The notes: a model not told the origin generated them from the sequence alone. A stretch of DNA of 64,000 nucleotides from Escherichia coli (GCF_024298765.1 NZ_CP101210.1), one strand, 5' to 3'. Shown: positions 14,625-54,423, counted from the first letter of the stretch. Program-made: numbers and translations.

Positions 14625-15050
14625 ATAGTTATGTAATTCATTGAATTTAAATAGCCAAATATTGTTGATTTTACAAGCGGCTCTTTTGCGGAACTTTTTC
14701 TGTCCTGTTACTGTCTTACTATTTATTTTAAAATAGTTTCATTTGGAATTAATGGTTTGTGGTTGCAGTTTCGGAGATAGATAGCATTTTTTGCTAAAAA
14801 ATATTTTTATAAAAAATGTGTGTAAAAATGATGTTATGCACAGATTTATGCACAGAGGCTTTGTGATAAACCAGATTGTTTTGGATAAGTTTGTTTTTTT
14901 GTGATTTGTCAACAATATTATTGACTCTTGTTACTAAAGTGAGTGTTTTCTAAGGTGGTCAGAAGTTGTCCCTTCATGTAATCTTATTAGCCATAAAGAA
15001 CAAAAAATAATTCAACATCATTACCAACTATTTGTAAGATAAGGTTTTTA

Positions 15051-15866
15051 ATGTTGCAGCCAGCAAAAAAAGCATCAGTTATTAGCGCGCGGCTAACGAA
15101 ATACCTCAAAGATGGAGTGAGGATTGATGACTTTAGCTTTAGAAGGATGTTACGTGAGATTGAAGCACTTAGAGATCCTGTCTCTGAGGACTATCTTTTA
15201 GCGTTGGTCTATGGTGCACATGGCCAAGTGAATGAGGCGATAGGCTTCTTTGAGCGTTCCTTGCAGGTATGCCATAATGAGGTTGTTGCAAAGAATTTTC
15301 TTGTTTTCTTGTCAGATTACGGTACGTTGAAGAAAAGCTTTGAAACAAGCATTAAGCTTGCTGAAAGCTTCATATCCCCGTTTATTTATCTTCAAGCTTA
15401 TGAAAACTCCCTCTTTATGGGGAAGATGGCGTTGGCGGAGAAGTATTTCCAGTCATACTCTAAATTGTTCGGAGATAAGGAGCCTGAAAAAATGGACAAC
15501 AATCTTGATGAAGTTGTTTCCCAGGTCGAATCCTTTAAGCAACGTGCCGATCTTTCTGGTTTAGAATATGAACTTATTTTCAATAATGTAGCCAATGTCA
15601 TGGATTCTCAGAAGGTTCATCTTTCGGGAATGCGTTTTTATAATATTTCGGAAGAGAAAGTGAATGCGATTGTATTCATGACAAAGTCTTCTGATGCTGA
15701 ACAAATCGCTGATATGAATATTGAGCTTGCTTTTTCAATGGCTGAGCACGATTGTTTAGTCGGTAAAGATTTTGCTGTTTGGTTTGAATGTAAAGACACA
15801 CATATTGAGCAGAATGCTATCTCCGAATTAGGTCTGATTACCCGGAGGGTTGCACATGCCGGTTAA
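15051..15866 (+). CDS. Hypothetical protein (271 aa), first gene of a two-gene cargo operon beside attL/int; function unknown
   Basis: Clean ORF, soluble and helical-looking, no motif I recognise; AT-rich by eye; AT-rich upstream leader. Confidence 0.55.
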   Translation: MLQPAKKASVISARLTKYLKDGVRIDDFSFRRMLREIEALRDPVSEDYLLALVYGAHGQVNEAIGFFERSLQVCHNEVVAKNFLVFLSDYGTLKKSFETSIKLAESFISPFIYLQAYENSLFMGKMALAEKYFQSYSKLFGDKEPEKMDNNLDEVVSQVESFKQRADLSGLEYELIFNNVANVMDSQKVHLSGMRFYNISEEKVNAIVFMTKSSDAEQIADMNIELAFSMAEHDCLVGKDFAVWFECKDTHIEQNAISELGLITRRVAHAG

Positions 15867-16239
15867 TAGTCAAGATTTTCTCGGTTTTGCAAAAGACTGT
15901 CATCAACGTAATGACGAAATCGGCTATCGAAATGCTATAGCAAGATCCTACTATGGCGCTTACCATCATGTCTTGCCTTGTATGGTAAACGGGCCGAAAG
16001 ACAGTCATCAGGGGCTAATCAATTATTTGCAGGGCGATGCTTCAAGAGGAAGTGAAGTATATGAAGCTAGATATCTAAAAGGGATTAGTTTTATCCTGAG
16101 TCAACTTAAAGCTCAGAGGATTGTTGCAGACTATCGACTTGATCAATCGGTCACTTCTAAACAGTCTGAAGTTGCGATTCTAACAACTGAGAGGCTCTTT
16201 GCTAAGTGTACGGAAATGCTTAAATCGAGAGCCTCCTAA
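15850..16239 (+). CDS. Hypothetical protein (129 aa), overlaps upstream gene by 17 nt; contains an R-x6-H dyad (RSYYGAYHH)
   Basis: Overlapping start implies translational coupling; followed by a terminator hairpin at 16246-16270. Confidence 0.5.
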   Translation: MHMPVNSQDFLGFAKDCHQRNDEIGYRNAIARSYYGAYHHVLPCMVNGPKDSHQGLINYLQGDASRGSEVYEARYLKGISFILSQLKAQRIVADYRLDQSVTSKQSEVAILTTERLFAKCTEMLKSRAS

Positions 16240-16245
16240 TTGATA

Positions 16246-16270
16246 AAGCCACTTAAGTGGCTTTTTTTGT
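16246..16270. terminator. Hairpin plus T-run between the convergent cargo operon and int
   Basis: aaagccacttaagtggcttttttt. Confidence 0.6.
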
Positions 16271-17425
16271 GATATTGCTGGTCGTATTACCGTCATATTC
16301 CTTTAAATATAAACCATAATGACGAAATAACATTTCCGGCCCTTTATGCCCCATTTGAGCTGCAAGCCAAAACAGGTTTGCTCCCCGGCTGATATGGCGG
16401 GTGGCGAATGTATGCCTAGTTTGATATGGATTTCTGTAACGAATACCTGCTTTTCGCAATGTTGGCACCCATGCTTTTTTCCTGATTGCATCAGCACTTG
16501 CCCAAGGCTTATTGGTCTTTGGATCTTCAAAGACAGTAGTATCCTTCATGAATGTAAATGGCTTCTGATTTATCAGCGCCAACATTGCCTCTTCTGTCAG
16601 TTCAACTTTCCGAGTACCTGCTTTTGTCTTTGTCCCTTTGATAACACCGACAACACTTGCGCTCTGGACATGGGCAGTTTTTCCAACAAAGTCGATATCA
16701 CGCCATCGAAGGGCACATAATTCAGAACTACGCAGGCCTGTATGTATAGCGAACCGGAACAGATTTTCCCATTGTTTGTTTCCGGCTGCTGCTAGTAATG
16801 CATCAACTTCTGCTGGTGATAGCGGATCAACTACGTAGCTGCTTTCTGCTTCTGACTTATCACTTTGGTAGCGCGAAGCTGTTACTAACGATACGGGGTT
16901 AATTTGAAGTACCCCATCGGTCACGGCTTCATCAAGTGCTGACCGCAGGAAAGATAACTGGTTGCGAATTGTTTTTAAGGTCGTTTTCTGATTTTGAATC
17001 CACGCTTTCAGGGTTGCTGGTGTTAATTCACTTGCAGGGCAAATGTGAAGTGAGGCTAACGCACTACGGCATTTTTTATAGCCACCAATCGTAGAGGGTG
17101 AAAGTTTTCTTGTTTCGCAGATTTCAAGATATTCGTCCAGGTACATCTTTACCGTTTTGCCTGCAGCAGCATTACCAAAAATTTTCAAACGAGCAGAACG
17201 GGGAAAATATTCTGCATAAATGAATGTTCCCCTTTCGATCTTATTATGGATTTCGCCGAGTGTACGCTCGGCGTATTTAATGTTCTTTGGTGTTACTTCC
17301 AGATTGGAAAGCGGCTCACGACATCTAACTCCTTTGTAGGTGAAAGTTATATTGATCGTTTCTCCCTGGCGGTGTTTCCTGATTGTTACGCCGCGCGGTA
17401 GTTTGAGCAGTTTTGTCTGGCCCAT
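16253..17425 (-). CDS. int: Phage integrase, tyrosine recombinase family
   Basis: 390-aa ORF with C-terminal catalytic region (...HTGLRSSELCALRWRDID...RHTFATRHISRGANLFWLAAQMGH...); adjacent to xis and the att region. Confidence 0.85.
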   Translation of the reverse strand: MGQTKLLKLPRGVTIRKHRQGETINITFTYKGVRCREPLSNLEVTPKNIKYAERTLGEIHNKIERGTFIYAEYFPRSARLKIFGNAAAGKTVKMYLDEYLEICETRKLSPSTIGGYKKCRSALASLHICPASELTPATLKAWIQNQKTTLKTIRNQLSFLRSALDEAVTDGVLQINPVSLVTASRYQSDKSEAESSYVVDPLSPAEVDALLAAAGNKQWENLFRFAIHTGLRSSELCALRWRDIDFVGKTAHVQSASVVGVIKGTKTKAGTRKVELTEEAMLALINQKPFTFMKDTTVFEDPKTNKPWASADAIRKKAWVPTLRKAGIRYRNPYQTRHTFATRHISRGANLFWLAAQMGHKGPEMLFRHYGLYLKEYDGNTTSNITKKAT

Positions 17426-17631
17426 TTTGCAACCTCACTAAGATCAATCCACCTCTCCTTAACGCCTTCAACCTTTAAAACCTGAACACCTTCACGCCAA
17501 ACACCGCGCTGTACACGTTTGTTTATTGCTTCAGGAGTTTCGCCAGTTTCTTTGCAATAAGTTGAGATAGGAACACAATCGAGGTTCAGCATACGTTTCT
17601 CCATTATCCCGTCTGCACACGGGAGCAACAT
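17386..17631 (-). CDS. xis: Putative excisionase / small DNA-binding protein
   Basis: 81-aa basic ORF immediately upstream of and overlapping int by 40 nt, as in lambda xis-int; exact start uncertain. Confidence 0.5.
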   Translation of the reverse strand: MLLPCADGIMEKRMLNLDCVPISTYCKETGETPEAINKRVQRGVWREGVQVLKVEGVKERWIDLSEVAKWARQNCSNYRAA

Positions 17632-17633: not shown

Positions 17634-18524
17634 TTAACGAATAGTGTCGTTACTTTGAAGTACAGCAAATGCCATTAATACTTCTAAAGTATATCTTCTA
17701 TAAAATTTAACAAAACCAACATAGAAAACATAGACGAAGAAAAAGCTAAGCATTATTGAAAGTAAACTATAAAGATAATCACTATGAGTACATAATCGAT
17801 AAATAAAGGTTGGAACTGATACCCAAAATGAAATTATAAAGATTAAACATATGTTTCTGCAAAAACCATATAATGCAACATAGTTTTGAATTTTTGTTTG
17901 ATGTTGTTTTGAAAACTCATAAACATAATGATATGCCAATCTGAAGAGATCATCATCAAGTCCGTTTTTATCTTGTAATAATTGGCGATTTGTTATGAAC
18001 TTTTTCTCATAACCTTCTTTGATCATTAACCATGTTGTATTAGCTAAATGAAATGGTAGAGATTGAGAATAACATAGTTTTTGTGTTATAAAATCCCATA
18101 GTATTATTGGGCATAATACGCATTTGATTATGCGATTCTTTATTTTTGTTTTTTTATCAGCGCTTCTCTCATCGCATGATGGGCTACAAATGCTTTCTGA
18201 GGTATCTATCAATTTTTTAAATAGATATTTGGAAGGATATCCTAATTCTTTATTCATGTATTTTTCGATAAAAAATGCTGACGTGATAGAAATAAAATGT
18301 CCAGCTATATAAGATATAATAACTATTGAAGCGTAGTTCAAAATGCCAAAGATTTGACTTTGACCTCTGAGCAATTCACTTAAGTCAATAACAATATCTA
18401 GATCGAATGTCAAACCACAGAAATACATTAATAGGATAAAAAAACCACCTGGTATTAAATATCCAAGAAAGTCATAGAATGAGAATGGATTTTGATTCAT
18501 TGTTGCTCTCCAATAATTTTTCAA
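17634..18524 (-). CDS. Hypothetical integral membrane protein (296 aa; ~2 N-terminal and ~2 C-terminal TM helices around a soluble core)
   Basis: Strikingly AT-rich by eye compared with neighbours; hydrophobic stretches FFILLMYFCGLTF, IVIISYIAGHFISITSAFFI, ICLIFIISFWVSVPTFIY, LLSIMLSFFFVYVFYVGFV. Confidence 0.55.
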   Translation of the reverse strand: MKNYWRATMNQNPFSFYDFLGYLIPGGFFILLMYFCGLTFDLDIVIDLSELLRGQSQIFGILNYASIVIISYIAGHFISITSAFFIEKYMNKELGYPSKYLFKKLIDTSESICSPSCDERSADKKTKIKNRIIKCVLCPIILWDFITQKLCYSQSLPFHLANTTWLMIKEGYEKKFITNRQLLQDKNGLDDDLFRLAYHYVYEFSKQHQTKIQNYVALYGFCRNICLIFIISFWVSVPTFIYRLCTHSDYLYSLLSIMLSFFFVYVFYVGFVKFYRRYTLEVLMAFAVLQSNDTIR

Positions 18525-18608: not shown

Positions 18609-19145
18609 TTACGACTCAGTTAACTCTTTAAAGCGTTCCATAAACATCCCATAGGTATGGCCTGGCGACAGTGGAATAACTTTGAACATCTCTGTTGCCG
18701 GGATACCTTCCAGTACGGGCCAGAAAGAGCCATCATCAAGCCCGAGATCGCGGCGTTCGGTTGCCAGCATGATGAGATCGGCATATTTCACGGGCGTACT
18801 CATAACCGGGGGTAACCCGTATTTCTCACGGATTACGGCGTCTATTTTTTCTTCCATCCGTTTATAGTCAGGAAGAAGGCGTTTCAGTGGAGCCGGGATG
18901 TCCTGGCAATACGCTTCTGTTGCATCATGCATTAACGCTTCAAAAGCAAATTCCTGCGGTACCAGCTGGCTGCAAAGCACCGCATGTTGGGCGACGCTGT
19001 AGAAGTGTGAAAGATGGCCGGCAAAGCGACAGATATTTGAAAGGGAAACCGCGATATCGTTAATATCGATGTTGTCTTTATTTATCCTGTCATAATAAAA
19101 ATGTTTCCCGGAAAAAGTTTTAATAAATGACATTTTGTTCTCCAC
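18609..19145 (-). CDS. HD-domain phosphohydrolase, YfdR-like (putative 5'-deoxynucleotidase)
   Basis: 178-aa ORF with H...HD motif (ALMHDATEAY); same size and position as YfdR of prophage CPS-53. Confidence 0.65.
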   Translation of the reverse strand: MENKMSFIKTFSGKHFYYDRINKDNIDINDIAVSLSNICRFAGHLSHFYSVAQHAVLCSQLVPQEFAFEALMHDATEAYCQDIPAPLKRLLPDYKRMEEKIDAVIREKYGLPPVMSTPVKYADLIMLATERRDLGLDDGSFWPVLEGIPATEMFKVIPLSPGHTYGMFMERFKELTES

Positions 19146-19261
19146 GTTATATGCGCTGCACCGCGCTGAATTTTGGTTAAAGAAAACCCTCGCCTTCAGG
19201 CGATTATTGAGTCAATTACGTTTCCATAAATGCCCCCGCAGGGGCATTTGCAGTAATGAAA

Positions 19262-20086
19262 TCAGGCGGTGAAAGTCCCAATAAAGGTTTCTACTTTGCT
19301 GTCCTTGAATTTCTCAACAAGCAGATCACGAAATTCGTTAGCCATATCTTCCTGCACCGCTTCCAGCTGAATAATGCGCAGAACCAGTACAGGACGATCG
19401 CCAGTGATAATGCTGAGGCGTAATTTAAACGGACGTTCTTTCAGACCTTCAAACGGAACGCATTTAAACTCAAATGCCACTGGCATAATGTCTTTGGTCT
19501 TCGCTTCGACAGACTCCATCAGGGAGCGTTTGCCGCTGAAGTCATTATCTTCAAAATCAGCAGTCTGGTTTGCTTCAATCGTGATTTTACGGACCGCCGC
19601 AGCCGCTTTTGTTGCCTGAATGGTGTCACCATTAGCATCAAAGCCCACAAGATAGTCGGCCCAGTCTTCGATCCATTCTGCCAGTGATTTCTGGGAGTTA
19701 CGCTCTCCATTAACAGACAACAGAGCAGAGAACGGTGCTGTCTTTTTCAGTTTGAGAGTGGCGGTGTTATCTGCGTGACCTGGTTCATCAATAGTACCCA
19801 GGTTAAGCACACTGACGGCACGCATATTATCAGCATCGATAAAGCAGCGGGTGCCTTCATCTGCAAGATCTTTAGAATAACGGGTAAAGTCATCAATGCT
19901 GGCAGTGGAAAGCGCACCACGGAAACGGAAGCGATTTAAATTAAATTTTTCCAGATCATGAATGCGGAAATTCTCAGGCAATGCCACAGCATCGGCACCA
20001 ATCTTACTGATAATTTCATTAACACCCTGAGCAGAAATAAGAGCATGGATTTGATTAATTGCGGTTGCGTCTAAGTTCTGAGACAT
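19262..20086 (-). CDS. YfdQ-like (DUF2303) prophage early protein
   Basis: 274-aa [24 protein letters not shown]...; recalled similarity to CPS-53 YfdQ. Confidence 0.6.
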
Positions 20087-20151
20087 AATAAGTCCTCACT
20101 ATATAAAGATATTCAGTGATGAGATAAATAATCAGTTAATTAAGAACGATA

Positions 20152-20514
20152 TTAATGACCTGCTGCGCGGAGTTTTCCGTCAGGCTCACCGGCAAGAGTC
20201 AGTAATTGTCCCTGGTCTTCCTGCAGAATAGTCAGGCGACCACCGCGATTGACATACATCGGCGTTTCGGTGGTGTCTTCTTCGGAAATTTTCCCACGGT
20301 TAGTCGGGCGAACATATGAGAGTTTGTGTTTGATTTTCACACGGTTCTCATCAAATGGTTCGATTTCCAGGTTGAGTGAGACCTTACCTTTGGTTTTCGT
20401 GTTCATCACACCGGAAGCGACTTCACTGAGAACTGCGCCGATTTTGGTTTCAAATACGCCGCCGTCCAGCTCCCCGATAAATGCCTGCACATCAGTACTG
20501 CGTTCGCTAGCCAT
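20152..20514 (-). CDS. YfdP-like prophage early protein (hypothetical)
   Basis: Likely start at MASERSTD, with GAGGAG 8 nt upstream on the coding strand; track ORF extends to 20700. Confidence 0.5.
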   Translation of the reverse strand: MASERSTDVQAFIGELDGGVFETKIGAVLSEVASGVMNTKTKGKVSLNLEIEPFDENRVKIKHKLSYVRPTNRGKISEEDTTETPMYVNRGGRLTILQEDQGQLLTLAGEPDGKLRAAGH

Positions 20515-20971: not shown

Positions 20972-21625
20972 TCAAAAATCCATTATTACTTGTTTGACAA
21001 GACCAACTATTCTGCAGTTCTCACCGCATTCAATAGTTTTATAGTTAGGATTTAGTGGGACGAGATACCTGTTCGGCCAGTCCTCAACAAATTTTTTGAG
21101 TGTCGCTTCTTGCCCACCATTGATATGGGCAACAACGATTTTTCCGTTAATACACTCTGTATCAATAATATCTGGCTCTACGATAACGATAGAACCTTCT
21201 GGTATCGATGGTGAGCCGAGGGGATTGGTCATTGAATCACCACGGACCCGTAGTGCAAATGCCATTTCTGATACAAGGGCGGTAGTATAAACCCACTCTT
21301 CAGCATCTTCTTTCCTGACACCAGGCTCCGTCATTGTCCATGAACCCGCCTGAACCCACGAGATGAGGGGGACTTTTTTAACTGCGAATATTTCAGGTTT
21401 TAGATTTATCTTTGGTTCAGGCGAGCCTTTTCCGCTAACAAGCCACAGAGGATCGCATTTAAGTGCGTTGGCTAGGGCTTGAAGGTTGGCTCCATTTGGT
21501 TGGTAGTCGTCCTTTTCCCATCCAGTAACCGTGACACGGTTCACACCAGTCAAATCAGCCAGTGCTTGTTGTGTCAGGTTCAGTTCTTTTCGCCTTTGGC
21601 GAATACGATCACTCATGTTCATCAT
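20972..21625 (-). CDS. CI-like prophage repressor (N-terminal XRE HTH, C-terminal S24 LexA-like peptidase domain)
   Basis: 217-aa ORF; HTH (LTQQALADLTGVNRVTVTGWE) and S24 motifs (RVRGDSMTNP ... KKF); divergent from a cro-like gene. Confidence 0.8.
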   Translation of the reverse strand: MMNMSDRIRQRRKELNLTQQALADLTGVNRVTVTGWEKDDYQPNGANLQALANALKCDPLWLVSGKGSPEPKINLKPEIFAVKKVPLISWVQAGSWTMTEPGVRKEDAEEWVYTTALVSEMAFALRVRGDSMTNPLGSPSIPEGSIVIVEPDIIDTECINGKIVVAHINGGQEATLKKFVEDWPNRYLVPLNPNYKTIECGENCRIVGLVKQVIMDF

Positions 21626-21688
21626 GTAGGCAATCCTACCACATGCTCATGTAGGATTCTTGACATTGATATGTTGGATATCCTACAT
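21624..21688. promoter_or_regulatory. Right operator region (OR1-3-like) with divergent PRM/PR promoters
   Basis: Three operator copies (atgtaggcaatcctac, atgtaggattcttgac, gttggatatcctacat); ttgaca -35 at 21660-21665; cI ATG abuts the operator. Confidence 0.6.
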
Positions 21689-21720
21689 TTCTGCTTAACG
21701 TAATTTAACGGGAGACAGAA

Positions 21721-21918
21721 ATGCGGAAATCCGACGTGATTAATTATTTCGGCGGAGTTTGTAAAACCGCCGAAGCCCTAGGTATTAAGCATCCGTCTGT
21801 TTCAGAGTGGCCTGAGATTATTCCTGAAGGCCGAGCGTACCAGTTAGAAAAAATTACTAACGGGAAACTGAAAGTTGACGTGTCTTTATATCAAAAGACT
21901 AACAGTGCTGCGGCATAA
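21721..21918 (+). CDS. Cro-like small HTH regulator (YdaS/DicC-type)
   Basis: 65-aa ORF divergent from cI directly after OR. Confidence 0.65.
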   Translation: MRKSDVINYFGGVCKTAEALGIKHPSVSEWPEIIPEGRAYQLEKITNGKLKVDVSLYQKTNSAAA

Positions 21919-21945: not shown

Positions 21946-22530
21946 GTGGGTAAAGAACCTGAATGGAAAGTTGATAAACAACCAGCATGGCTGGTGGCAG
22001 CAATACGAAGAACGATTGCTGATTTACCTCATGGCTATGAGGAAGCAGCAGAAATTCTTGGTTTGTATAAATCTGATGATATCACCCCAGCAAAAGATCA
22101 ATTGCATAACAGACTGCGTAGCGGTGGGGATCAAATTTTTCCACTTGAGTGGGCCATGGTTTTACAGGATGCCAGTGGTACCAGGCATGTAACAGATGCA
22201 ATAGCCCGTCGTAGTAATGGGGTGTTTGTGCCGCTGGTGGTCATTGATGACATTGACAATGGTGACATTAATCAGCGGCTGATGGAGTCAATAGAATGGA
22301 TTGGCAAGCATTCCCAGTACTTACGCAAGGCAACTGCTGATGGAGTTATTGACCAAGCTGAGCGTGAGCAAATCGAAGAGAACAGCTACCAAGTAATGGC
22401 GAAGTGGCAGGAGCATTTAACACTGTTATTTCGTGTTTTTTGTGCGCCGGAAAAGAGTAACGCCCGCGAGTGTGCAGCTCCGGGCGTCGTGGCGTCGATT
22501 GCTTCTGGTTGTGGAGAAACTAACGCATGA
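21946..22530 (+). CDS. YdaT-like (CII-position) prophage regulatory protein
   Basis: 194-aa ORF, GTG start with GAGG upstream; position after cro. Confidence 0.5.
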
Positions 22531-22865
22531 ACAGTTTAACAACACACTACCGTCGTTCGCAACTGATTGCGCTTCCTGTACCGGGTGGAAAAGCGAAGGT
22601 GGAGTATTGCTATGCAGTGAATGTACCAGGTGATAGGGAAATTGTAACCCACAGCTTTGCAGAGTGGGCTGTGGGTGATTTCAACCGGCAGAAGGAGACA
22701 GTCCTTTGCGACAAGTTAACCGCTGGTTCAAAGATCACTACGGAGTGCCCGTCAGAGTCATTCGTTGGGAGCCGGAAACACAACGGGTTATCTACCTCCG
22801 TGAAGGCTATGAACATGAATGCTTCAGTCCGCTCGAACAGTTTCGTCGTAAATTCAGGGAAATAG
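22527..22865 (+). CDS. Hypothetical protein (112 aa); may be the 5' part of a frameshifted gene
   Basis: ORF overlapping the 22706-22918 ORF in another frame. Confidence 0.3.
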
Positions 22866-22918
22866 AGGTCGGTCATGAGCCTGTTAATGACATCCCAGCC
22901 CATTGTGATAAATCGTGA
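22706..22918 (+). CDS. Hypothetical protein (70 aa); may be the 3' part of a frameshifted gene
   Basis: Overlaps the upstream ORF and the replication-gene start. Confidence 0.3.
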
Positions 22919-23867
22919 TCTTGCATGCCGTATTGGTCTGAATGAGGCAATTGTGTTGCAGCAGCTTCATTACTGGCTGAATGAAACGAATTCAGGCACT
23001 GAGCATGGCGGAATTCGCTGGGTTTATAACACGACAGAACAGTGGCTGGAGCAGTTTCCGTTCTGGTCAGAGTCCACTCTGAAACGCACATTTGCAAGCC
23101 TGAAATCACTTGGGGTTTTGCGTCGCGAGCAACTCAATAAATCGAAGCGTGACATGACCAACTTCTACACGATCAACTATGAAAGTGAGCTTTTAGAAGA
23201 GGTCAAAGTGAACGAATCCATCAGGTCAAAATGCACTTCTCCATCGGGTCAAAGTGACCTGATGGATGAGCGCAAAATGACACGATCCATTGGTTCAAAA
23301 CGACACGCTGTCATCGGGTCAAAATGGCCCAATGATCTTACAGAGAATACAACAGAGATTACTACAGAGAATAAAACCTCTTCTCGTCCGGACGCTTCGC
23401 AACCGGACACGCAGATGGCTGAACAGGATTTTTTAACTCGCCATCCTGATGCGGTTGTATTCAGCCCTAAAAAGCGCCAGTGGGGAACGCAGGATGATTT
23501 GACCTGCGCACAGTGGCTCTGGAAAAAAATCATCGCTCTGTACGAGCAGGCCGCCGAATGTGACGGCGAAGTGGTACGTCCTAAAGAACCGAACTGGACA
23601 GCCTGGGCAAACGAAATTCGCCTGATGTGTGTACAGGATGGGCGTACTCACAAACAAATCTGCGAGATGTACAGCCGCGTCAGCCGCGATCCGTTCTGGT
23701 GCCGTAACGTGCTCAGCCCGTCGAAGCTGCGGGAAAAATGGGATGAGCTTTCCCTGCGCTTATCGCCGTCCGTCAGCACGTACACAGAAAAACGCGAAGA
23801 TCCGTACTTCAAAGCCAGTTACGACAACGTGGACTACAGCCAGATCCCGGCAGGATTCAGGGGGTGA
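22875..23867 (+). CDS. Phage replication initiator (lambda O-like / replisome organiser) with embedded origin iterons
   Basis: 330-aa ORF with N-terminal DNA-binding-like region; iterons inside the coding sequence as in lambda O. Confidence 0.7.
   Translation: MSLLMTSQPIVINRDLACRIGLNEAIVLQQLHYWLNETNSGTEHGGIRWVYNTTEQWLEQFPFWSESTLKRTFASLKSLGVLRREQLNKSKRDMTNFYTINYESELLEEVKVNESIRSKCTSPSGQSDLMDERKMTRSIGSKRHAVIGSKWPNDLTENTTEITTENKTSSRPDASQPDTQMAEQDFLTRHPDAVVFSPKKRQWGTQDDLTCAQWLWKKIIALYEQAAECDGEVVRPKEPNWTAWANEIRLMCVQDGRTHKQICEMYSRVSRDPFWCRNVLSPSKLREKWDELSLRLSPSVSTYTEKREDPYFKASYDNVDYSQIPAGFRG
23199..23326. repeat. Origin-type iterons: five direct repeats of ~CATCRGGTCAAARTG inside the replication gene
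   Basis: gaggtcaaagtg, ccatcaggtcaaaatg, ccatcgggtcaaagtg, ccattggttcaaaacg, tcatcgggtcaaaatg, followed by an A/T-rich stretch. Confidence 0.7.
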
Positions 23868-23869
23868 TC

Positions 23870-23962
23870 ATGAGTCTTTTGAATGAAGTTCAGAAATTCA
23901 TTGAAGCCCATCCGGGGTGTACTTCCGGAGACATTGCGGATGCTTTTTACGTGGGGGCTTAA
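23870..23962 (+). CDS. Possible small coupled ORF (30 aa) between the replication gene and the methylase
   Basis: ATG overlaps the upstream stop; TAATG overlap with the methylase start; found by hand. Confidence 0.3.
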   Translation: MSLLNEVQKFIEAHPGCTSGDIADAFYVGA

Positions 23963-24615
23963 TGAGTAATAAATATTGTCAGGCGCTGGTGGAGCTGCGG
24001 AACAAACCATCCCATGAACTGAAGGAGGTGGGCGATCAGTGGCGCACGCCGGACAGCATTTTCTGGGGAATTAACACCTTGTTTGGCCCGTTTGTTCTGG
24101 ATCTGTTCACTGACGGTGATAACGCCAAATGTGCCGCGTATTACACGGCGGAAGACAACGCGCTGGCGCATGACTGGTCAGAACGCCTTGCGGAGCTTAA
24201 AGGTGCTGCCTTTGGCAATCCCCCATACAGTCGCGCCAGTCAGCATGAGGGGCAATACATCACCGGCATGCGTTACATCATGAAACATGCCAGTGCCATG
24301 CGTGATAAGGGCGGGCGCTATGTTTTCCTGATCAAAGCTGCCACCAGCGAAGTGTGGTGGCCGGAAGATGCGGACCATATTGCTTTTATTCGCGGGCGTA
24401 TTGGTTTTGAACTGCCTGCCTGGTTTATCCCGAAAGATGAGAAGCAGGTGCCGATAGGCGCTTTCTTCGCTGGTGCTATTGCTGTTTTTGACAAGACCTG
24501 GAAGGGACCGGCAATCAGCTACATCGGGCGCGATGAACTTGAGGCATGTGGTGAGGCCTTTCTGGCGCAGGTTCGCCAGCAGGCAGAAAAACTGGTCAGG
24601 GAGATGGTGGCATGA
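23962..24615 (+). CDS. Phage-type DNA N6-adenine methyltransferase (Dam-like, orphan)
   Basis: Start at MSNKYCQALVEL (track ORF starts at 23917); contains the FGNPPY motif, a D/N-PP-Y/F-type catalytic signature. Confidence 0.7.
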   Translation: MSNKYCQALVELRNKPSHELKEVGDQWRTPDSIFWGINTLFGPFVLDLFTDGDNAKCAAYYTAEDNALAHDWSERLAELKGAAFGNPPYSRASQHEGQYITGMRYIMKHASAMRDKGGRYVFLIKAATSEVWWPEDADHIAFIRGRIGFELPAWFIPKDEKQVPIGAFFAGAIAVFDKTWKGPAISYIGRDELEACGEAFLAQVRQQAEKLVREMVA

Positions 24616-25001
24616 AGCTGATCCTGCCTTTTCCGCCCAGCGTGAACACGTACTGGCGACACCCCAACAAAGGGGCGTTTGCTGGTAAGAGCCTGATAAG
24701 CGCGGCGGGGCGAAAATTCCAGAGCGCGGCGTGCGCAGCAATAGTTGAGCAGTTACGTCGTCTGCCGAAACCAACGTCGGCACCTGCTTCAGTGGAGATC
24801 GTGTTGTTTCCTCCGGATAACCGGATCCGCGATCTGGACAACTATAACAAGGCGCTGTTTGACGCCCTGACCCACGCGGGTGTGTGGGAAGACGACAGTC
24901 AGGTGAAAAGAATGCTGGTGGAGTGGGGACCGGTTATCCCGGGAGGGAAGGTCGAGATCACTATCAGTAAGTACGAGAAAACGGCGGGTGCAGCCGCCTG
25001 A
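24612..25001 (+). CDS. rusA: RusA-family Holliday junction resolvase
   Basis: 129-aa ORF MKLILPFPPSVNTYWRH...DLDNYNKALFDALTHAGVWEDDSQV. Confidence 0.8.
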   Translation: MKLILPFPPSVNTYWRHPNKGAFAGKSLISAAGRKFQSAACAAIVEQLRRLPKPTSAPASVEIVLFPPDNRIRDLDNYNKALFDALTHAGVWEDDSQVKRMLVEWGPVIPGGKVEITISKYEKTAGAAA

Positions 25002-25020
25002 TTAAGAGGAGAAACGAAGT

Positions 25021-25818
25021 ATGAATAATCTGATGGTCATTGATGGTATTGAAGTTCGTCGTGATGCTTATGGTCGTTACAGCCTGAACGATCTGCACAG
25101 GTCTGCCGGTTCTCTGGATAAGCATAAGCCTGCATTCTGGCTCCGCAATGAGCAAACTGAACGTTTAATAAGCGAGTTGCAGATTTGCAACTCGGTCAAT
25201 ATAGAGCCAGTTAACGTTATTCGTGGCGGAAATAACCAGGGGACGTATGTCTGCAAAGAACTGGTGTATGCCTATGCAATGTGGATCAGCCCGTCATTCC
25301 ATCTGAAGGTGATCCGTACTTTCGACATGGTAACCAGCGCACCGGAAAAATTATCCGGACAGGCTGCTGACAAGATGCAGGCTGGTGTGATCCTGCTGGA
25401 CTTTATGCGCCGGGAATTAAACCTGTCTAACTCATCAGTGCTTGGAGCCTGTCAGAAGCTTCAGGAGGCTGTTGGCTTACCGAATCTGGCACCGCGCTAT
25501 GCCATTGATGCTCCTGCTGATGCACTCGATGGCTCAAGCCGCCCGACACTGTCACTGAGTGCACTGCTGAAGCAGTATGGTATCCGCCTGACAGCTAATC
25601 AGGCATATCACCAGATGGCGAAGCTGGGGATCGTTGAACAACGTGAACGATACAGCCGCACTGCGATTAACAACATCAAAAAATTCTGGTCGCTGACGGC
25701 GAAAGGCTGCATGTTCGGCAAGAACATCACCAGTCCCGCAAATCCGCGCGAGACGCAGCCGCATTTCTTCGAATCCCGATTCCCTGAGCTGTTAAAGCTG
25801 CTCGATACCGTTCATTGA
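25021..25818 (+). CDS. KilA-N-domain protein (antirepressor-like)
   Basis: N-terminal pattern (IDGIEVRRDAYGRYSLNDLHRSAG...KPAFWLRNEQT) typical of KilA-N. Confidence 0.6.
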   Translation: MNNLMVIDGIEVRRDAYGRYSLNDLHRSAGSLDKHKPAFWLRNEQTERLISELQICNSVNIEPVNVIRGGNNQGTYVCKELVYAYAMWISPSFHLKVIRTFDMVTSAPEKLSGQAADKMQAGVILLDFMRRELNLSNSSVLGACQKLQEAVGLPNLAPRYAIDAPADALDGSSRPTLSLSALLKQYGIRLTANQAYHQMAKLGIVEQRERYSRTAINNIKKFWSLTAKGCMFGKNITSPANPRETQPHFFESRFPELLKLLDTVH

Positions 25819-25819
25819 G

Positions 25820-26815
25820 GTGACCGTGAGAGCACTACTGACCCCTGAAATTGCCCCGCGTATGGGGATCGTATTGTTCAGACCAGGTTCAGAGCTGATG
25901 CCCTTGTTTATGCAGGGGCGTGTCCTGCTGGAGCCTGAGCCGGAACGTTATTCATCTTTCGCCAGTGGTGCCGTTCCGGCGGCATCACAACCGCTGGCGG
26001 ATGATCCTGCCGTTCGGGCCGTGTTCCGCAATGAGGCAGTGATCCGTCGTGCTGGTGGCGTGGAATGTCTTGAAAGCTGGTTACTTCGTGAAAAAGGCTG
26101 CCAGTGGCCTCATTCCGGCTGGCACAGCGAGAACATGACAACAATGCGACACGCTCCGGGCGCAATCCGTCTGTGCTGGCACTGCGATAACCAGCTGCGC
26201 GATCAGTTCACGGAACGGCTGGAATCAATGGCAACGGATAACTGTGCCCGCTGGGTGTTGTCTGTTGTGCGTCGGGATCTCGGTTTTGATGACAGTCATG
26301 TTGTGACAATGCCGGAACTGTGCTGGTGGCTGATTCGTAATGATCTGGCGGATGCCTTACCGGAAAGTGCAGCCCGTAAGGCACTGAGATTACCGAAGCC
26401 TGTTGTGCCGTCTGTTACCCGGGAAAGTGACCTTGTGCCTTCGGTTCCTGCCACCAGCATCATCCAGGATAAGGCGAAAAAGGTGCTGGCGCTGAAAGTG
26501 GATCCGGAGTCGCCGGAGTCTTTTATGTTACGCCCAAAACGTCGCCGCTGGGTTAATGAAAAGTACACGCGCTGGGTTAAGACACAGCCGTGTGCATGTT
26601 GTGGAAAGCCCGCTGATGATCCCCACCACCTGATAGGTCACGGTCAGGGTGGAATGGGAACAAAAGCGCATGACCTCTTTGTGTTGCCTTTGTGCAGAAA
26701 GCATCACGACGAGCTGCATGCGGATACCGTGGCATTTGAAGAGAAGTATGGCTCTCAGCTGGAGCTGATATTTCGTTTTATCGATCGTGCGCTGGCAATT
26801 GGCGTATTGGCGTAA
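25820..26815 (+). CDS. DUF968 (YdfU-like) prophage protein with C-terminal Cys/His cluster
   Basis: C-terminal CACCGKPADDPHHL...CRKHHDELH motif. Confidence 0.55.
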   Translation: MTVRALLTPEIAPRMGIVLFRPGSELMPLFMQGRVLLEPEPERYSSFASGAVPAASQPLADDPAVRAVFRNEAVIRRAGGVECLESWLLREKGCQWPHSGWHSENMTTMRHAPGAIRLCWHCDNQLRDQFTERLESMATDNCARWVLSVVRRDLGFDDSHVVTMPELCWWLIRNDLADALPESAARKALRLPKPVVPSVTRESDLVPSVPATSIIQDKAKKVLALKVDPESPESFMLRPKRRRWVNEKYTRWVKTQPCACCGKPADDPHHLIGHGQGGMGTKAHDLFVLPLCRKHHDELHADTVAFEEKYGSQLELIFRFIDRALAIGVLA

Positions 26816-26828
26816 GTGGAGAACGAGC

Positions 26829-27581
26829 ATGAACCTTGAAGCCTTACCAAAATATTACTCCCCAAAATCTCCAAAATTGAGCGATGACGCACCGGCGACA
26901 GGCTCTGGTGGTTTAACAATTACGGATGTAATGGCTGCGCAGGGGATGGTGCAGTCGAAAGCACCGCTTGGGTTTGCCTTATTCCTGGCAAAAGTTGGTG
27001 TTCAGGATCCTCAGTTTGCGATTGAAGGTCTGCTCAATTACGCGATGGCACTGGATAACCCGACATTGAATAAATTGAGTGAAGAAACCCGGCTACAGAT
27101 CATTCCTTACCTTGTGAATTTTGCCTTTGCTGATTATTCCAGGTCTGCGGCAAGTAAGGCTCGCTGTGAGCATTGTGCTGGTACTGGATTTCATAATGTA
27201 TTGCGCGAGGTGGTGAAACACTCCAGAAGCGGGGAATCTGTTATCAAGGAAGAGTGGGTGAAGGAACTATGTCAGCATTGTCATGGTAAGGGAGAAGTCA
27301 GCACAGCGTGCAGAGGGTGTAAGGGTAAAGGTATTGTCCTGGATGAAAAAAGAACCCGGCTTCATGGTACGCCTGTTTATAAGATTTGTGGGCGTTGCAA
27401 TGGTAACCGTTTTAGCCGTTTACCAACCACACTGGCGCGGCATCATGTCCAGAAGCTGGTACCAGACCTGACGGATTATCAGTGGTACAAAGGATATGCA
27501 GATGTCATTGATAAACTGGTTACAAAGTGCTGGCAGGAAGAAGCATATGCAGAGACACAATTGAGAAAAGTGACAAGATAA
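26829..27581 (+). CDS. Late-gene antiterminator Q (zinc-binding)
   Basis: CEHCAGTG...CQHCHGKG...CRGCKGKG Cys clusters; immediately upstream of a promoter plus terminator pair and the lysis genes. Confidence 0.7.
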   Translation: MNLEALPKYYSPKSPKLSDDAPATGSGGLTITDVMAAQGMVQSKAPLGFALFLAKVGVQDPQFAIEGLLNYAMALDNPTLNKLSEETRLQIIPYLVNFAFADYSRSAASKARCEHCAGTGFHNVLREVVKHSRSGESVIKEEWVKELCQHCHGKGEVSTACRGCKGKGIVLDEKRTRLHGTPVYKICGRCNGNRFSRLPTTLARHHVQKLVPDLTDYQWYKGYADVIDKLVTKCWQEEAYAETQLRKVTR

Positions 27582-27612
27582 ATGATTTTCGCCGAAGATG
27601 GCGACATGATGC

Positions 27613-27715
27613 TTGCATTTTTCAAAAAATCTGGTTAGGATTCTCCTAACGATGGGCTTTGTATGTCTGCCGTTAACGAAATCATAACAAACCTCGCTTC
27701 GGCGGGGTTTTTGCT
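27613..27715 (+). promoter_or_regulatory. Late promoter PR'-like with downstream tR'-like terminator (Q-utilisation region)
   Basis: ttgcat -35-like hexamer at 27613; terminator hairpin cctcgc-ttcg-gcgggg plus ttttt at 27690-27715. Confidence 0.55.
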
Positions 27716-27731
27716 TTTCTGGAGGTCAATA

Positions 27732-27989
27732 ATGCAGGGCGAAAAGCAGCAGCCATATTTTTTTAACCCTGGTATGACTGTTGAACAGCTTGAAGACTGG
27801 CTGGAGCAGCAAAAGCTTCATCTAAGCCGCTATAACCGTCTGGTAAAAGAAAAAGCAGAGCTTGAAGAACGGCTCAGTGATATTTCTGTGGAAATTGAAC
27901 GAATGTCTGCTGGTGGTTTTAACGGAAAGTTGAGTTTCCCCTGGGAGTCAAGTTCGCTTCTGAGAAATCATCAACAGGGTAGTGTTTGA
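27732..27989 (+). CDS. Hypothetical late protein (85 aa)
   Basis: GGAGG 6 nt upstream of ATG 27732; first ORF after the tR'-like terminator. Confidence 0.4.
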   Translation: MQGEKQQPYFFNPGMTVEQLEDWLEQQKLHLSRYNRLVKEKAELEERLSDISVEIERMSAGGFNGKLSFPWESSSLLRNHQQGSV

Positions 27990-28068
27990 CTGAAATAATA
28001 AACAGACTGTCATTAAGATCCCTTCCCCTCATATCTGAGAGGACCAACAGCAATTAAGAGGGGGCTAA

Positions 28069-28455
28069 ATGTCCGATCCGATTTCCGGTACTGGGCTGGC
28101 TGGTGGTGCCCTGACGGGTGCCAGTGTTTATGGACTGCTGACCGGAACTGATTACGGCGTTGTATTTGGCGCATTTGCAGGGGCTGTATTCTACATAGCA
28201 ACAGCAGCAGATCTGAGTGCATCGCGTCGACTGGCATATTTTATCGTGTCATATATTGCCGGGATTCTTTGCTCTGGGTTGGTTGGCTCCAAGCTGGCGA
28301 ACTTGACCGGATACAGTGATAAACCTCTGGATGCTATTGGTGCCGTAATCGTCTCTGCTTTAGCCGTTAAAATCCTGACGTTCCTGAATAATCAGGATAT
28401 CGGCTCGCTGGTGGCGCTCATAACGCGCCGGGGAGGTTCAGGTGGAGCTAAATGA
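28069..28455 (+). CDS. Putative holin (membrane protein, lysis cassette)
   Basis: 128-aa hydrophobic ORF directly upstream of the endolysin. Confidence 0.6.
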   Translation: MSDPISGTGLAGGALTGASVYGLLTGTDYGVVFGAFAGAVFYIATAADLSASRRLAYFIVSYIAGILCSGLVGSKLANLTGYSDKPLDAIGAVIVSALAVKILTFLNNQDIGSLVALITRRGGSGGAK

Positions 28456-28723
28456 CCCGACAGCAACTATAAATGCGCTGTTATGTGCTTGTGTTGTTAT
28501 TACTCTGATGTTTTATCGTCGTGGTGATTCGCGGCATCGTCCTTGGGTTTCACGTTTAGCCTGGCTGATTACTGTTACATACAGTGCTGTTCCGTTGGCC
28601 TATCTCTGTGGGATTTATCCTCATTCCTCATGGCCCATTATCGTGGCGAACACTATTTTTCTTTCCGTGCTGGTGGCCGTCAGAGGCAACGTTGCACGTC
28701 TGGTTGATCATCTGAGGCACTAA
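28442..28723 (+). CDS. Second small lysis-cassette membrane protein (holin/antiholin candidate)
   Basis: 93-aa ORF with TM segments, overlapping the neighbouring genes. Confidence 0.5.
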   Translation: MELNDPTATINALLCACVVITLMFYRRGDSRHRPWVSRLAWLITVTYSAVPLAYLCGIYPHSSWPIIVANTIFLSVLVAVRGNVARLVDHLRH

Positions 28724-35055: not shown

Positions 35056-35065
35056 AGGAAACATC

Positions 35066-36319: not shown

Positions 36320-36343
36320 CGCCGCGTAATGCGGTTTTTTTGT
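36320..36343 (+). terminator. Hairpin plus T-run after the major capsid gene (probable attenuating terminator)
   Basis: ccgcgtaatgcggttttttt. Confidence 0.4.
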
Positions 36344-36373
36344 GCCCGCGTTCTGGCGGGCACAGGAGGTTTT

Positions 36374-51478: not shown

Positions 51479-52912
51479 ATGTCTGAATTTGAAGTGTTGG
51501 CACAGCATCTGCTGAAGGAAGCCGAGGCGGAAGAAAAGCTGCGACAGGAAAATGATAAAAAGCTTATCGAGAAAGTGCTGGAAATCTATGATCAGAAGTA
51601 TGTGGCTGAATTACTGAGAAAAGTCGGAAAAAATGAGTGGAGCCGTGAAACCATTAACCGCTGGATTAATGGCAAGTGTTTACCAAAATCGTTGACTTCA
51701 GTAGAAGAGTCTCTTCTGCGTAAGATGCTACCAGAACCACCTGCAAACCATCCGGAATATGCTTTCCGCTTCATTGACTTATTTGCTGGAATTGGAGGGA
51801 TACGGAAAGGTTTTGAGGCCATTGGAGGCCAGTGTGTTTTTACCAGTGAATGGAATAAAGATGCTGTGCGTACATACAAGGCCAACTGGTTTAACGATGA
51901 ACAGGTGCATAAATTCAATCTCGATATTCGGGAAGTCACGCTGAGTGATAAAACCGATGTATTGGAAACGGATGCTTATGCATATATTGATGAGCATGTG
52001 CCGGATCATGATGTGCTTCTTGCGGGGTTCCCGTGCCAGCCATTTAGCCTTGCTGGTGTTAGTAAGAAAAACTCACTTGGTCGTGCGCATGGTTTTGAAT
52101 GTGAAGCACAAGGAACACTTTTTTTTGACGTGGCACGTATTATACGAGCAAAAAAACCGGCAATTTTTGTGCTGGAAAATGTCAAAAATCTGAAGAGCCA
52201 TGATAAGGGTAAAACTTTCAAAGTCATTATGGAGACCCTTGACGAGCTGGGCTACGAAGTTGCCGATGCTGCAGAAATGGGAAAAAACGATCCAAAGATT
52301 ATCGATGGGAAGCATTTTTTGCCTCAGCATCGTGAACGCATTGTTCTGGTCGGATTTAGACGAGATCTGAATATTCACAAGGGGTTTACCTTGCGTGATA
52401 TCAGTCGTTTTTATCCGGAACACCGCCCATCATTTGGTGAATTGCTGGAGCCTGTAGTCGACAGTAAATATATACTTACGCCAAAACTATGGGAGTACCT
52501 TTATAACTACGCCAAAAAGCATGCAGCCAAGGGGAATGGTTTTGGCTTTGGGTTGGTCAATCCTGAGAATAAGGAAAGCATTGCACGCACACTTTCTGCC
52601 AGATATCACAAAGACGGATCAGAAATTCTTATTGATCGTGGTTGGGATATGGCAACGGGAGAGGCTGACTTTATGAATGAGAGTAATCAGGCTCGTCGAC
52701 CACGCAGGCTGACTCCCCGAGAGTGCGCACGCCTTATGGGATTTGAAAAACCTGGAGGGAAACCATTCCGTATTCCGGTTTCAGATACTCAGTCATATCG
52801 GCAGTTCGGTAACTCAGTTGTGGTGCCAGTATTTGAAGCTGTTGCCAGACTTCTGGAACCCTATATCCTCAAAGCTGTTTCTGCTGATGCTGGTAAGACT
52901 GGGCAGCCTTGA
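51479..52912 (+). CDS. DNA cytosine-5 methyltransferase, Dcm/M.EcoRII family (predicted CCWGG)
   Basis: [12 protein letters not shown] (motif I), [10 protein letters not shown] (PCQ, motif IV), ENV (motif VI), QFGNSV (motif X); collinear with recalled Dcm; alternative start at 51437. Confidence 0.85.
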
Positions 52913-52946
52913 GAACATCTCCCGGCCTTTTAAGCCGGGAGTCAGC

Positions 52947-54161
52947 CTATGATAGTTCAGCGTAAAGCTCTATCAGCTCAGTAATGAATGCTCCGAGCGT
53001 TATTAATTCTTCTCTAACTGCTTCTGGGTATTTTTTATGTAAAGTTGATGGTACAACGAGTCTGACACCCGCATCTTTCATTTCTCGGTATTGTGCTGAA
53101 GAAACACCTTCTTGCAGTGTAAATAAATGTACCTGATGGATTTTATCTGCTTCATTCAGTATCTGACGCCAGCGATCTTTGCAGGTGGTCTTTACTGCCA
53201 GCATACGTAAGTTTTCTACAGGAAATTCAACGTTATGATATGCCTCTGCTGAAGGAAACAGGAAATCTGGTTTTTTATTACCTTCAGTAACTGCCTGAGT
53301 GGAGAAATGCCGTAGTCCGTGCTCGATAAAAAGCTTCTCTAGGTGAAGTTCAAGTGATTTGCCTGCCCTTGATTTACGTCGATTACTGACAGAGTTGGCT
53401 AATGCAATAAACTCATCTACAGAATCGAATCCTTTCTTAATAATATCAAGAACATGTAATTCCTCGACGAGTAGAAAAATATCATACTCGACACGCCGAC
53501 GGTCAATCAGTTGCTCATCTGGATCCTTGGAGTTTTTAGCATAATGGCCAGCAGCATATTGAATAATTTCGTTTCCAGAAGGAAAACGCTTCTTCCAGTC
53601 TTCAGGAATAACATATTTATGATTTACTGGAGTTTGCTGAAGAGACAATCCGCCCAAAATTTGTCCGGCAGGGCCGGAAATTAGGGTTCCAGGTATGATT
53701 TCGCCAATAGCAGACTCGATGATATCCTCTTCATCGGGATTGACGCAGACCCATATATCTACCTCGGAACAGTCAGTGTTCTGTTCGTTTAACCTGAAAG
53801 CAAGAATTGTGAGGGCTCCTGTATTTTCAGGGTTCTGTAATGGACTTCCTCTCCCCCAGCGCGTAATTCTTTTTTCGTTTCGGGTCTTACCAAAATAACG
53901 GTTGTTGTAATAAATTGCGCGTGCTTGGGTATCAGGGCAATCATGGGATGATACATGCGCAGTAAGGAAGACTGAAGGGTTCAGTTCGCGAGTATGATTG
54001 ATAGATGGAAAAAGCTTTTCAACGATATTTGAGGGGATATAAAGTCCGACCTGATGGCCACCTGTTGCGCCTGTGTCGTTTGCAGAAAGGCGTTTGATGT
54101 AGATAAAGTAATTCCCGCTTGCGATATCAAGCAGCCAGTTATGAAAAACCGACATATACAT
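52947..54161 (-). CDS. Type IIE restriction endonuclease, EcoRII family
   Basis: 404-aa ORF (MY)MSVFHNWLLDIASGNYFIYIKRLSANDTGATGGHQVGLYIP..., matching my recollection of EcoRII; convergent with the methyltransferase. Confidence 0.75.
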   Translation of the reverse strand: MYMSVFHNWLLDIASGNYFIYIKRLSANDTGATGGHQVGLYIPSNIVEKLFPSINHTRELNPSVFLTAHVSSHDCPDTQARAIYYNNRYFGKTRNEKRITRWGRGSPLQNPENTGALTILAFRLNEQNTDCSEVDIWVCVNPDEEDIIESAIGEIIPGTLISGPAGQILGGLSLQQTPVNHKYVIPEDWKKRFPSGNEIIQYAAGHYAKNSKDPDEQLIDRRRVEYDIFLLVEELHVLDIIKKGFDSVDEFIALANSVSNRRKSRAGKSLELHLEKLFIEHGLRHFSTQAVTEGNKKPDFLFPSAEAYHNVEFPVENLRMLAVKTTCKDRWRQILNEADKIHQVHLFTLQEGVSSAQYREMKDAGVRLVVPSTLHKKYPEAVREELITLGAFITELIELYAELS

Positions 54162-54237
54162 CCCTTTGTTAACATACAGTCAGGGTTAACATTTTTCCAT
54201 AGTTATAGATAAGCGGCTAGGAACTTAAGGGAAAAAC

Positions 54238-54423
54238 AAAAAGCCCGCATAAGCGGGCTTTTGTGTCACTCGAGAGCCGCGGCTCCTTTGCGTATCCTTT
54301 TTTATCTCCTCACCGTCTGGTCGGTGTCCTGCTGAGACTGCTAACTTCCTGTTTTTGTTGGTGTTGTCCTTACACCGTCCAATCATGATTGGTGGAGCTG
54401 GCGGGAGTTGAACCCGCGTCCGA
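54238..54423. repeat. Right att-associated direct repeat (ssrA 3' end plus phage-borne downstream arm with terminator)
   Basis: ~90% identical by eye to 14441-14624; hairpin plus T-run (read on the minus strand) at 54238-54262. Confidence 0.7.

Follow-up and report, generated by a model that had tools for sequence, protein, structure and literature searches.

An Apparently Intact SfV-Like Mosaic Prophage with Defence Cargo at the ssrA 3' End of Escherichia coli

A 64,000-nucleotide stretch of Escherichia coli DNA (GCF_024298765.1, NZ_CP101210.1), here called the window and numbered from its first letter, carries a prophage between glaH and the tmRNA gene ssrA. With a probability of about 0.85, this element is a temperate lambdoid myovirus of the SfV-like group that is structurally intact and was inserted by its own integrase of the phiNP/LLS type into a 25-bp core at the 3' end of ssrA. 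The anatomy of the element, the integrity of its genes, their homologies and the precision of its insertion are direct observations, set out below before its relatives, its predicted life cycle and its cargo are considered.

Integration at the ssrA 3' End

The ssrA gene (tag ANDENYALAA) is intact on the minus strand at 54390-54752, with smpB upstream of it in the window; tmRNA was also the only structured RNA found in the window at Rfam gathering thresholds. The 25 nucleotides (nt) at the 3' end of ssrA occur in exactly two copies in the window (14593-14617 and 54390-54414), against a chance expectation of 0, and fall within a direct repeat of ~183 nt (14442-14624 and 54238-54421), whose copies are ~95% identical and spaced by 39,797 bp. 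In both copies, the final 32 nt of ssrA continue into ~150 nt of downstream flank, in which a GC-rich hairpin is followed by a T-run. The attachment (att) repeats and the target gene are arranged as follows:

14442-14624, minus strand: distal att repeat; 14593-14624 is the displaced ssrA end of 32 nt, and 14442-14592 is native chromosomal flank containing the terminator hairpin of ssrA
54238-54421, minus strand: proximal att repeat; 54390-54421 is the ssrA 3' end, and 54238-54389 is a copy of the flank and terminator brought by the phage
54390-54752, minus strand: ssrA (tmRNA), integration target, intact (ARAGORN; Rfam RF00023, 295.8 bits)

To reconstruct the empty site, the left flank with the distal repeat was fused to the 5' part of ssrA, and the resulting 674 nt were matched to complete E. 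coli genomes. The rebuilt junction is uninterrupted in 711 of these genomes, and the best matches (up to 99.9%) differ by one mismatch in 674 nt; the insertion is therefore precise. Since the single mismatch falls on base 14620, the first base of the phage arm, the distal repeat is native chromosome from 14619 leftwards, and the sequence places the crossover within 51 identical nt (14569-14619, equivalent to 54366-54416). The flank copy beside ssrA (54238-54365) is phage-borne; its pattern of single-nucleotide polymorphisms is common to the attP of phage LLS and not to the native copy. The attP brings along the last ~32 nt of ssrA and the ~150-nt flank with its terminator, and ssrA in the lysogen consequently stays wild-type and retains a terminator. 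The native flank would have been displaced by 39.8 kb to its present place beside glaH, and recombination between the 51 identical nt by Int and Xis would excise the phage, restore the native site and leave ssrA unmutated. As an observation in its own right, the ssrA terminator is exchanged on integration for one supplied by the phage; the attP of phage LLS has a like copy of the flank.

An earlier note on this DNA had placed a phage in the ssrA integration site at 14625-54423, with the integrase distal to ssrA. The 183-nt repeats and the empty sites of the 711 genomes bear out the site, and the proposed span agrees almost to the base with the phage DNA plus the ssrA-proximal repeat; the position of the integrase is likewise upheld (see below).

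The chromosomal surroundings differ from those in K-12. The region of glaH (csiD), lhgO and gabDTP (13911-14441 and flanks) directly abuts ssrA in the backbone, this strain lacks the K-12 segment with CP4-57, ypjA and ileY, and the window yielded no tRNA gene. The junction between the glaH side and ssrA of this strain also occurs in 711 genomes, including NRG 857C and avian pathogenic E. coli strains.

Integrase and Integration Module

The only integrase of the element lies at its ssrA-distal end (16253-17425), a layout also found in the prophages of EcE.CRE.COL, CFT073 and UID2309220027. Its sequence identity is 93% with the integrase of the Citrobacter rodentium phage phiNP and 87% with that of LLS, a plaque-forming phage. 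Phage phiNP, a myovirus that is spontaneously released and lysogenises E. coli K-12, was experimentally shown to integrate at the 25-bp sequence TGGTGGAGCTGGCGGGAGTTGAACC at the ssrA 3' end (PMC6456863); this sequence is exactly the core that is duplicated here, with ssrA intact. The genes next to the integrase were assigned as follows:

16253-17425, minus strand: tyrosine integrase of the phiNP/LLS type, 390 aa (phrog_1, E 2.7e-63; integrase matches in PDB)
17386-17631, minus strand: excisionase (phrog_2917, E 8e-45)
17634-18524, minus strand: hydrophobic protein of 288-296 aa, 3' of xis (phrog_12528, unknown function)

The product of 17634-18524 is probably a membrane protein and possibly a superinfection-exclusion or defence factor; it has weak PADLOC matches to Csx27 (E 1.4e-5) and tm_4.

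Integrity of the Phage Genes

The element was compared by megablast with 50,697 phage records, and every coding sequence (CDS) of phages SfV and SKA5 was translated and aligned to the window. The small and large terminase subunits (TerS and TerL), portal, protease, capsid, connectors, sheath, tube, chaperone, tape measure, N, P, gp45-48, Q, the lysis proteins and the HNH endonuclease are all full length, free of gaps and stops, and 98-100% identical in amino acid sequence to their counterparts in SfV and/or SKA5; the tail-fibre tip and its assembly protein are the exceptions, full length yet diverged. The alignment, CDS by CDS, shows no frameshift or truncation in the structural genes, in agreement with the remark of the earlier note that nearly every module looks intact. 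Only two differences are of the deletion type: a PerC/YfdN-like gene survives as a remnant, the same one being present in the prfC prophage of FORC_082, and the LexA-like orf42 known from SfV is cleanly missing (at 24612).

Mosaic Structure and Relatives

The closest phages by megablast were SfV, SfI, SfII, SfIV and Escherichia phage SKA5. The element shows the features by which the SfV-like group is recognized (sensu Bobay et al. 2013): the order cI/cro switch, replication, nin, Q, lysis and late genes, a Mu-type tail and an HK97 head. SfV-like lambdoid myoviruses use several integration sites in E. coli (PMC3603311, which cites Allison et al. 2002 for SfV-like phages). Along the element, the nearest relative changes from segment to segment:

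14.6-18.6 kb: integration module; nearest to the CFT073 ssrA prophage, which has lambda-type siphovirus structural genes
18.6-20.7 kb: yfdR, yfdQ and yfdP; SfV-like
20.7-23.9 kb: immunity and replication; nearest to SKA5 and to the FORC_082 prophage at prfC, which has another integrase
23.9-27.7 kb: Nin-like region and Q; SfV-like
27.7-30.4 kb: lysis; SKA5-like, not SfV-like
30.4-47.8 kb: packaging, head and tail; SfV, 97.9% nucleotide identity over 17 kb
47.8-54.2 kb: tail-fibre tip and right-hand cargo; unlike all sequenced phages compared

The mosaic make-up proposed earlier is thus evident in the integration module, held in common with the siphovirus-type prophage of CFT073, and in the core, held in common with the FORC_082 prophage at prfC; the comparison with SfV-like phages that had been suggested as a check yielded the 97.9% identity of the packaging, head and tail genes.

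The likeness to SfV extends over the packaging, head and tail proteins (98-100% identical), the lambdoid layout, Q and the nin-region genes, and yfdR/Q/P. In contrast, SfV has different int and xis genes and gtr O-antigen genes, where the present element has an ssrA-targeting integrase and defence cargo; no match to the int, xis or gtr genes of SfV was found in the element, which is not the serotype-converting SfV proper. Further differences lie in the immunity region, the replication gene, the lysis cassette and the tail-fibre tip, and an invertible fibre segment with a Pin-type invertase is present here whereas none is annotated in SfV.

SKA5 (OR670062) and the FORC_082 prophage resemble the element in a core from immunity to tail that is 98-99% identical, and in having the same lysis cassette; the CI repressor is 100% identical to that of SKA5, and shared immunity is therefore expected. 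Both have other integrases, attachment sites and end cargo; Q is frameshifted in FORC_082 but intact here, and SKA5 keeps full PerC-like and LexA-like genes.

Phages phiNP and LLS share with the element the integrase type, the 25-29-bp core of the ssrA 3' end, the lack of an early-left Rec module, O-only replication and abundant Chi sites; LLS in addition has the ~180-nt copy of the ssrA flank in its attP (87.8% nucleotide identity in a megablast of the prophage ends). In other respects they are distant: LLS has head and tail genes of the lambda-like siphovirus kind, phiNP matches at the DNA level only in the int/xis segment (83.7% nucleotide identity) and its structural genes are not close, and neither phage carries the EcoRII/CMoRE module.

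At the same glaH-ssrA locus, the CFT073 prophage shares the TPR+HEPN pair, int, xis, the membrane protein and yfdR/Q/P at 98% identity, but its head and tail genes are of the lambda-type siphovirus kind, its cargo is different, and it covers only 26% of the present prophage; under the name "Ecoc48X" it was catalogued at this site by Williams 2003, as cited in PMC10107115. In K-12, the ssrA 3' end is also occupied, but by CP4-57, an unrelated cryptic element of the P4 type whose integrase adjoins ssrA. Excision of CP4-57 deletes one base of ssrA (PMC10107115); in the present element, the ssrA part is the same in both repeats, and excision should therefore leave ssrA wild-type, unlike that of CP4-57.

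A megablast with both prophage ends found no record among the 50,697 with the same int/attP and cargo, and the identical prophage was absent among the 5,426 complete E. coli genomes searched. Among E. coli genomes, the left end was matched best in the sister prophage L011 (NZ_CM142691.1, 99.3%), the right end in M37H (99.5%) and the core in FORC_082 (98.8%, at another site). The literature yielded nothing relevant on SKA5, on vB_EcoM-720R4 or on an EcoRII-carrying ssrA prophage in E. coli. Every component of the element is already known; the exact mosaic is new among the records and genomes searched.

Regulation, Replication and Nin-Like Region

The regulatory and replication genes of the element are those of a lambdoid phage:

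18609-20514, minus strand: early-left operon of yfdR (5'-deoxynucleotidase), yfdQ and yfdP (94-100% identical to SfV orf30-32)
20972-21625, minus strand: CI repressor, with helix-turn-helix and S24 peptidase domains (phrog_4, E 5e-59)
21626-21720: divergent promoter/operator region, with repeated TGTAGG...CCTACA half-sites read from the sequence
21721-21918, plus strand: cro
21946-22530, plus strand: ymfL, CII-like
22527-22865, plus strand: ymfM
22875-23867, plus strand: O-like replication initiator, 330 aa (phrog_391, E 8e-102)
23870-23962, plus strand: PerC/YfdN-like remnant of 30 codons, with ~395 bp deleted in comparison with its relatives
23962-27581, plus strand: Nin-like region with Dam methylase, RusA, a KilA-N protein, a DUF968/HNH protein and Q
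26829-27581, plus strand: Q antiterminator, full length, 99.6% identical to SfV Q

Lysogeny would be held by the lambda-CI-like repressor, in which a lambda-like QAG cleavage site and the Ser/Lys motifs can be read; the autocleavage domain suggests that derepression would be SOS-inducible. Lytic growth would use Cro, the CII-like protein, a single O-type initiator and the Q antiterminator. The O-like gene contains iteron-like repeats (23242-23264 and 23312-23334), and no helicase or loader gene was found 3' of it.

Between xis and cI, none of the open reading frames (ORFs) encodes a product resembling Exo, Bet, Gam, Erf or RecT in PHROG searches; the early-left operon carries yfdR/Q/P in place of a Rec module, and replication is O-only. 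The prophage contains 17 Chi sites (GCTGGTGG) between 21990 and 39276, 15 of them co-oriented plus two others, where ~0.8 per strand would be expected; 12 of the 15 co-oriented sites are located at 21990-29382, which corresponds to the right-hand ~22% of the virion map opened at cos. Lambdoid phages of the "LLS functional type", a class described only recently, exploit the host RecBCD enzyme (PMC12315714), and the abundance of Chi sites together with the lack of a Rec module would fit this RecBCD-reliant class.

Lysis, Packaging, Head and Tail

The late genes follow on the plus strand:

28069-29880, plus strand: lysis cassette with two holin-family proteins, a GH19-type endolysin, Rz and an Rz1-like lipoprotein (PGAP names in a relative)
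29334-29726, plus strand: Rz
29545-29880, plus strand: Rz1-like lipoprotein with lipobox LLTGC, overlapping the end of Rz
30386-30736, plus strand: HNH endonuclease (phrog_144)
30794/30795: probable cos site, between HNH and TerS
30862-31356, plus strand: TerS, P27 family
31353-33086, plus strand: TerL
33186-38142, plus strand: HK97-type portal, prohead protease and major capsid, then head-tail connectors
38151-47461, plus strand: Mu-type contractile tail with sheath, tube, chaperone, tape measure, DNA-circulation protein N, P hub, gp45, gp46, gp47 (baseplate J) and gp48

The cos site is probably at this position because the ends of the linear SfV genome map there. The P27-family TerS and the HK97-family portal, protease and capsid exceed the NCBIfam cut-offs (TIGR01558, TIGR01537, TIGR01543 and TIGR01554), and the tail genes match the Pfam families DNA_circ_N, GpP-like, Phage_Mu_Gp45, GP46, Baseplate_J and Phage_Mu_Gp48 as well as those of the sheath and tube. 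Three assignments of the earlier note are borne out by these profile searches: lambdoid regulation (CI/Cro, O-like replication, Q and Rz/Rz1, all of which were found, CI with its S24 domain), an HK97-type head accompanied by an HNH endonuclease and a P27-like TerS, and a Mu-type contractile tail (sheath, tube, gpN/gpP-like proteins and baseplate J) like that of SfV phages, whose proteins it matches at 98-100%. The activity of each module is predicted from its sequence; the late stage would run through lysis by holin, endolysin and spanin, HNH-assisted packaging at cos by the P27-type terminase, and assembly of an HK97-type head and a Mu-type contractile tail.

An ORF of 106 aa (29973-30293), situated after the lysis genes and before HNH, is 100% identical in SKA5; it is named "GrlR family regulatory protein" by PGAP in a relative (L005) and is possibly a moron.

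Tail-Fibre Switch and Right-Hand Defence Cargo

Beyond the tail genes, the element diverges from the phages compared and carries a putative fibre switch followed by three cargo genes:

47465-49660: tail-fibre and assembly genes, including an invertible segment; on the minus strand, 48510-49660 encodes an alternative fibre tip and its assembly protein
49687-50241, plus strand: Pin/Gin-type serine DNA invertase (phrog_125, E 1.7e-97; pinE by PGAP in relatives)
50299-51072, minus strand: PD-T4-3/CMoRE GIY-YIG nuclease (PADLOC PD-T4-3, E 4.7e-140; PDB 9u75, E 2.4e-171)
51437-52912, plus strand: Dcm/M.EcoRII-type cytosine-5 DNA methyltransferase (NF007772, 927 bits against a cut-off of 710; PADLOC MTase_II)
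52947-54161, minus strand: EcoRII-like type II restriction endonuclease, 404 aa (PDB 1na6, E 3e-243; PADLOC REase_II)

The invertible segment is bounded by 20-nt inverted repeats (47749-47768 and 49606-49625), and the tail-fibre tip would be switched by the Pin-type invertase. The PADLOC alignment of the CMoRE homolog covers model positions 1-255 of 256; CMoRE is a type IV GIY-YIG enzyme that cuts the 5-hydroxymethylcytosine (5hmC) and glucosyl-hmC DNA of T-even phages (PMC12923530). The alignment of the endonuclease with EcoRII (1na6) spans residues 1-403 without gaps, includes both domains, and is ~88% identical by eye; the homology of this restriction-modification (R-M) pair to the EcoRII system (type IIE/IIP) suggests cleavage and methylation at CCWGG. 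The R-M and CMoRE genes had no match among the 50,697 phage records, and the order pin, CMoRE, R-M, ssrA is shared by at least 158 complete genomes of E. coli, among them O103 and O121 Shiga toxin-producing strains. In the sister SfV-like prophage L011 at glaH-ssrA, a single hypothetical protein of 502 aa (40769-42277) lies between pinE and ssrA and replaces CMoRE and the EcoRII R-M system; because this prophage has another gene there, the interval from pin to att is a variable cargo hotspot.

The TPR and HEPN Gene Pair

The opposite end of the element, between the distal att repeat and int, carries a second cargo region:

15051-15866, plus strand: cargo gene 1, 271 aa, TPR-like N-terminal helical repeat and alpha/beta C-terminal domain
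15856-16239, plus strand: cargo gene 2, HEPN-fold protein of 127 aa, overlapping gene 1 by 11 nt

Neither gene had a significant match among Pfam, NCBIfam and PADLOC profiles, and the TPR and HEPN assignments are based on structure prediction. For the 127-aa protein (pLDDT 93), the top Foldseek matches are HEPN proteins, at weak scores (best E 8.6e-3, TM ~0.62); there is a marginal PADLOC match to HEPN_IX (E 0.0014), one homolog carries PF05168, and R30 and H37, which form an Rx6H motif in line with the Rx4-6H motif of HEPN proteins, are invariant in 27 homologs. The pair also occurs in prophages of Rahnella (L009), where it neighbours an integrase at icd, and of Serratia (L006), where it is embedded among tail genes. 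Tentatively, and with the odds against it, the pair may represent an undescribed phage-borne defence system of the abortive-infection or toxin-antitoxin type that moves as a unit between unrelated moron positions, in which the TPR protein would sense or restrain and the HEPN protein would act as an RNase effector. The genes at the two AT-rich ends of the element, that is, the EcoRII-like R-M system, PD-T4-3/CMoRE and the TPR+HEPN pair, would be expressed to the benefit of the lysogen.

Intact Phage, Cryptic Remnant or Tandem Elements

Several observations weigh against an intact phage. A gene fragment is found at the mosaic junction near 20.7 kb, between yfdP and cI; the PerC/YfdN-like gene is cut to 30 codons and orf42 is absent, although FORC_082 shares the PerC remnant; no N-like antiterminator was recognized in a by-eye check of the small ORFs between yfdP and cI; and point mutations that abolish function without truncating a gene may be present. 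The related ssrA prophage UID2309220027 has a frameshifted tape measure and repressor, evidence that this lineage does decay, and since no sequenced phage combines this int/attP with this cargo, virions of this particular mosaic are undocumented. The same lesions and the decayed sister prophages would suit a recently immobilised cryptic prophage, with genes that look intact but a lytic cycle that is no longer completed, kept for its defence cargo; the persistence of the cargo end beside ssrA in the 158 or more genomes noted above is compatible with selection on this cargo. Yet all essential genes are full length and 98-100% identical to those of the functional phage SfV; the element retains Int, Xis, both att repeats, cI, cro, Q and cos; and the PerC remnant recurs in another otherwise similar prophage, PerC and orf42 being accessory. 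Neither the remnant, nor the absence of orf42, nor the fragment at 20.7 kb affects a structural or known essential gene. A cryptic prophage is therefore considered unlikely, and a structurally intact temperate phage remains the preferred reading; that it is inducible appears plausible, because the genes that have decayed in its relatives (Q, tape measure and repressor) are intact here.

The right-hand end also invites an explanation by two elements in tandem, a small ssrA island that would carry the R-M and GIY-YIG genes along with an ssrA-adjacent integrase of its own, and an SfV-like phage behind it. The 404-aa ORF is located directly 3' of ssrA and in the same orientation, as is intA in CP4-57, and the segment from 48 to 54 kb is low in GC. 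This ORF was considered as a second integrase and rejected: it is a homolog of EcoRII and not a recombinase, which leaves a single integrase, and the ssrA 3' core has only two copies in the window, so that an internal att junction is lacking. A related prophage, moreover, has a different cargo gene in the interval from pin to att, as expected of a hotspot within one phage. Tandem elements are accordingly a very improbable explanation in comparison with a single intact phage.

Implications

The element provides a clean annotation example of a probably active SfV-like ssrA prophage: its att boundaries and empty site are precisely defined, and its integrase closely resembles one with an experimentally validated site. 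Nothing in it would surprise a phage specialist, and the TPR+HEPN pair is the sole lead here towards something undescribed. For the family, the comparison illustrates how one lambdoid lineage exchanges integration modules (ssrA, prfC and thrW), and how the two AT-rich intervals on either side of attP serve this lineage as cargo hotspots. For the host, the predicted specificities of this cargo suggest that the lysogen would gain complementary restriction, directed by the EcoRII-like system against unmodified DNA and by PD-T4-3/CMoRE against DNA containing hydroxymethylcytosine.

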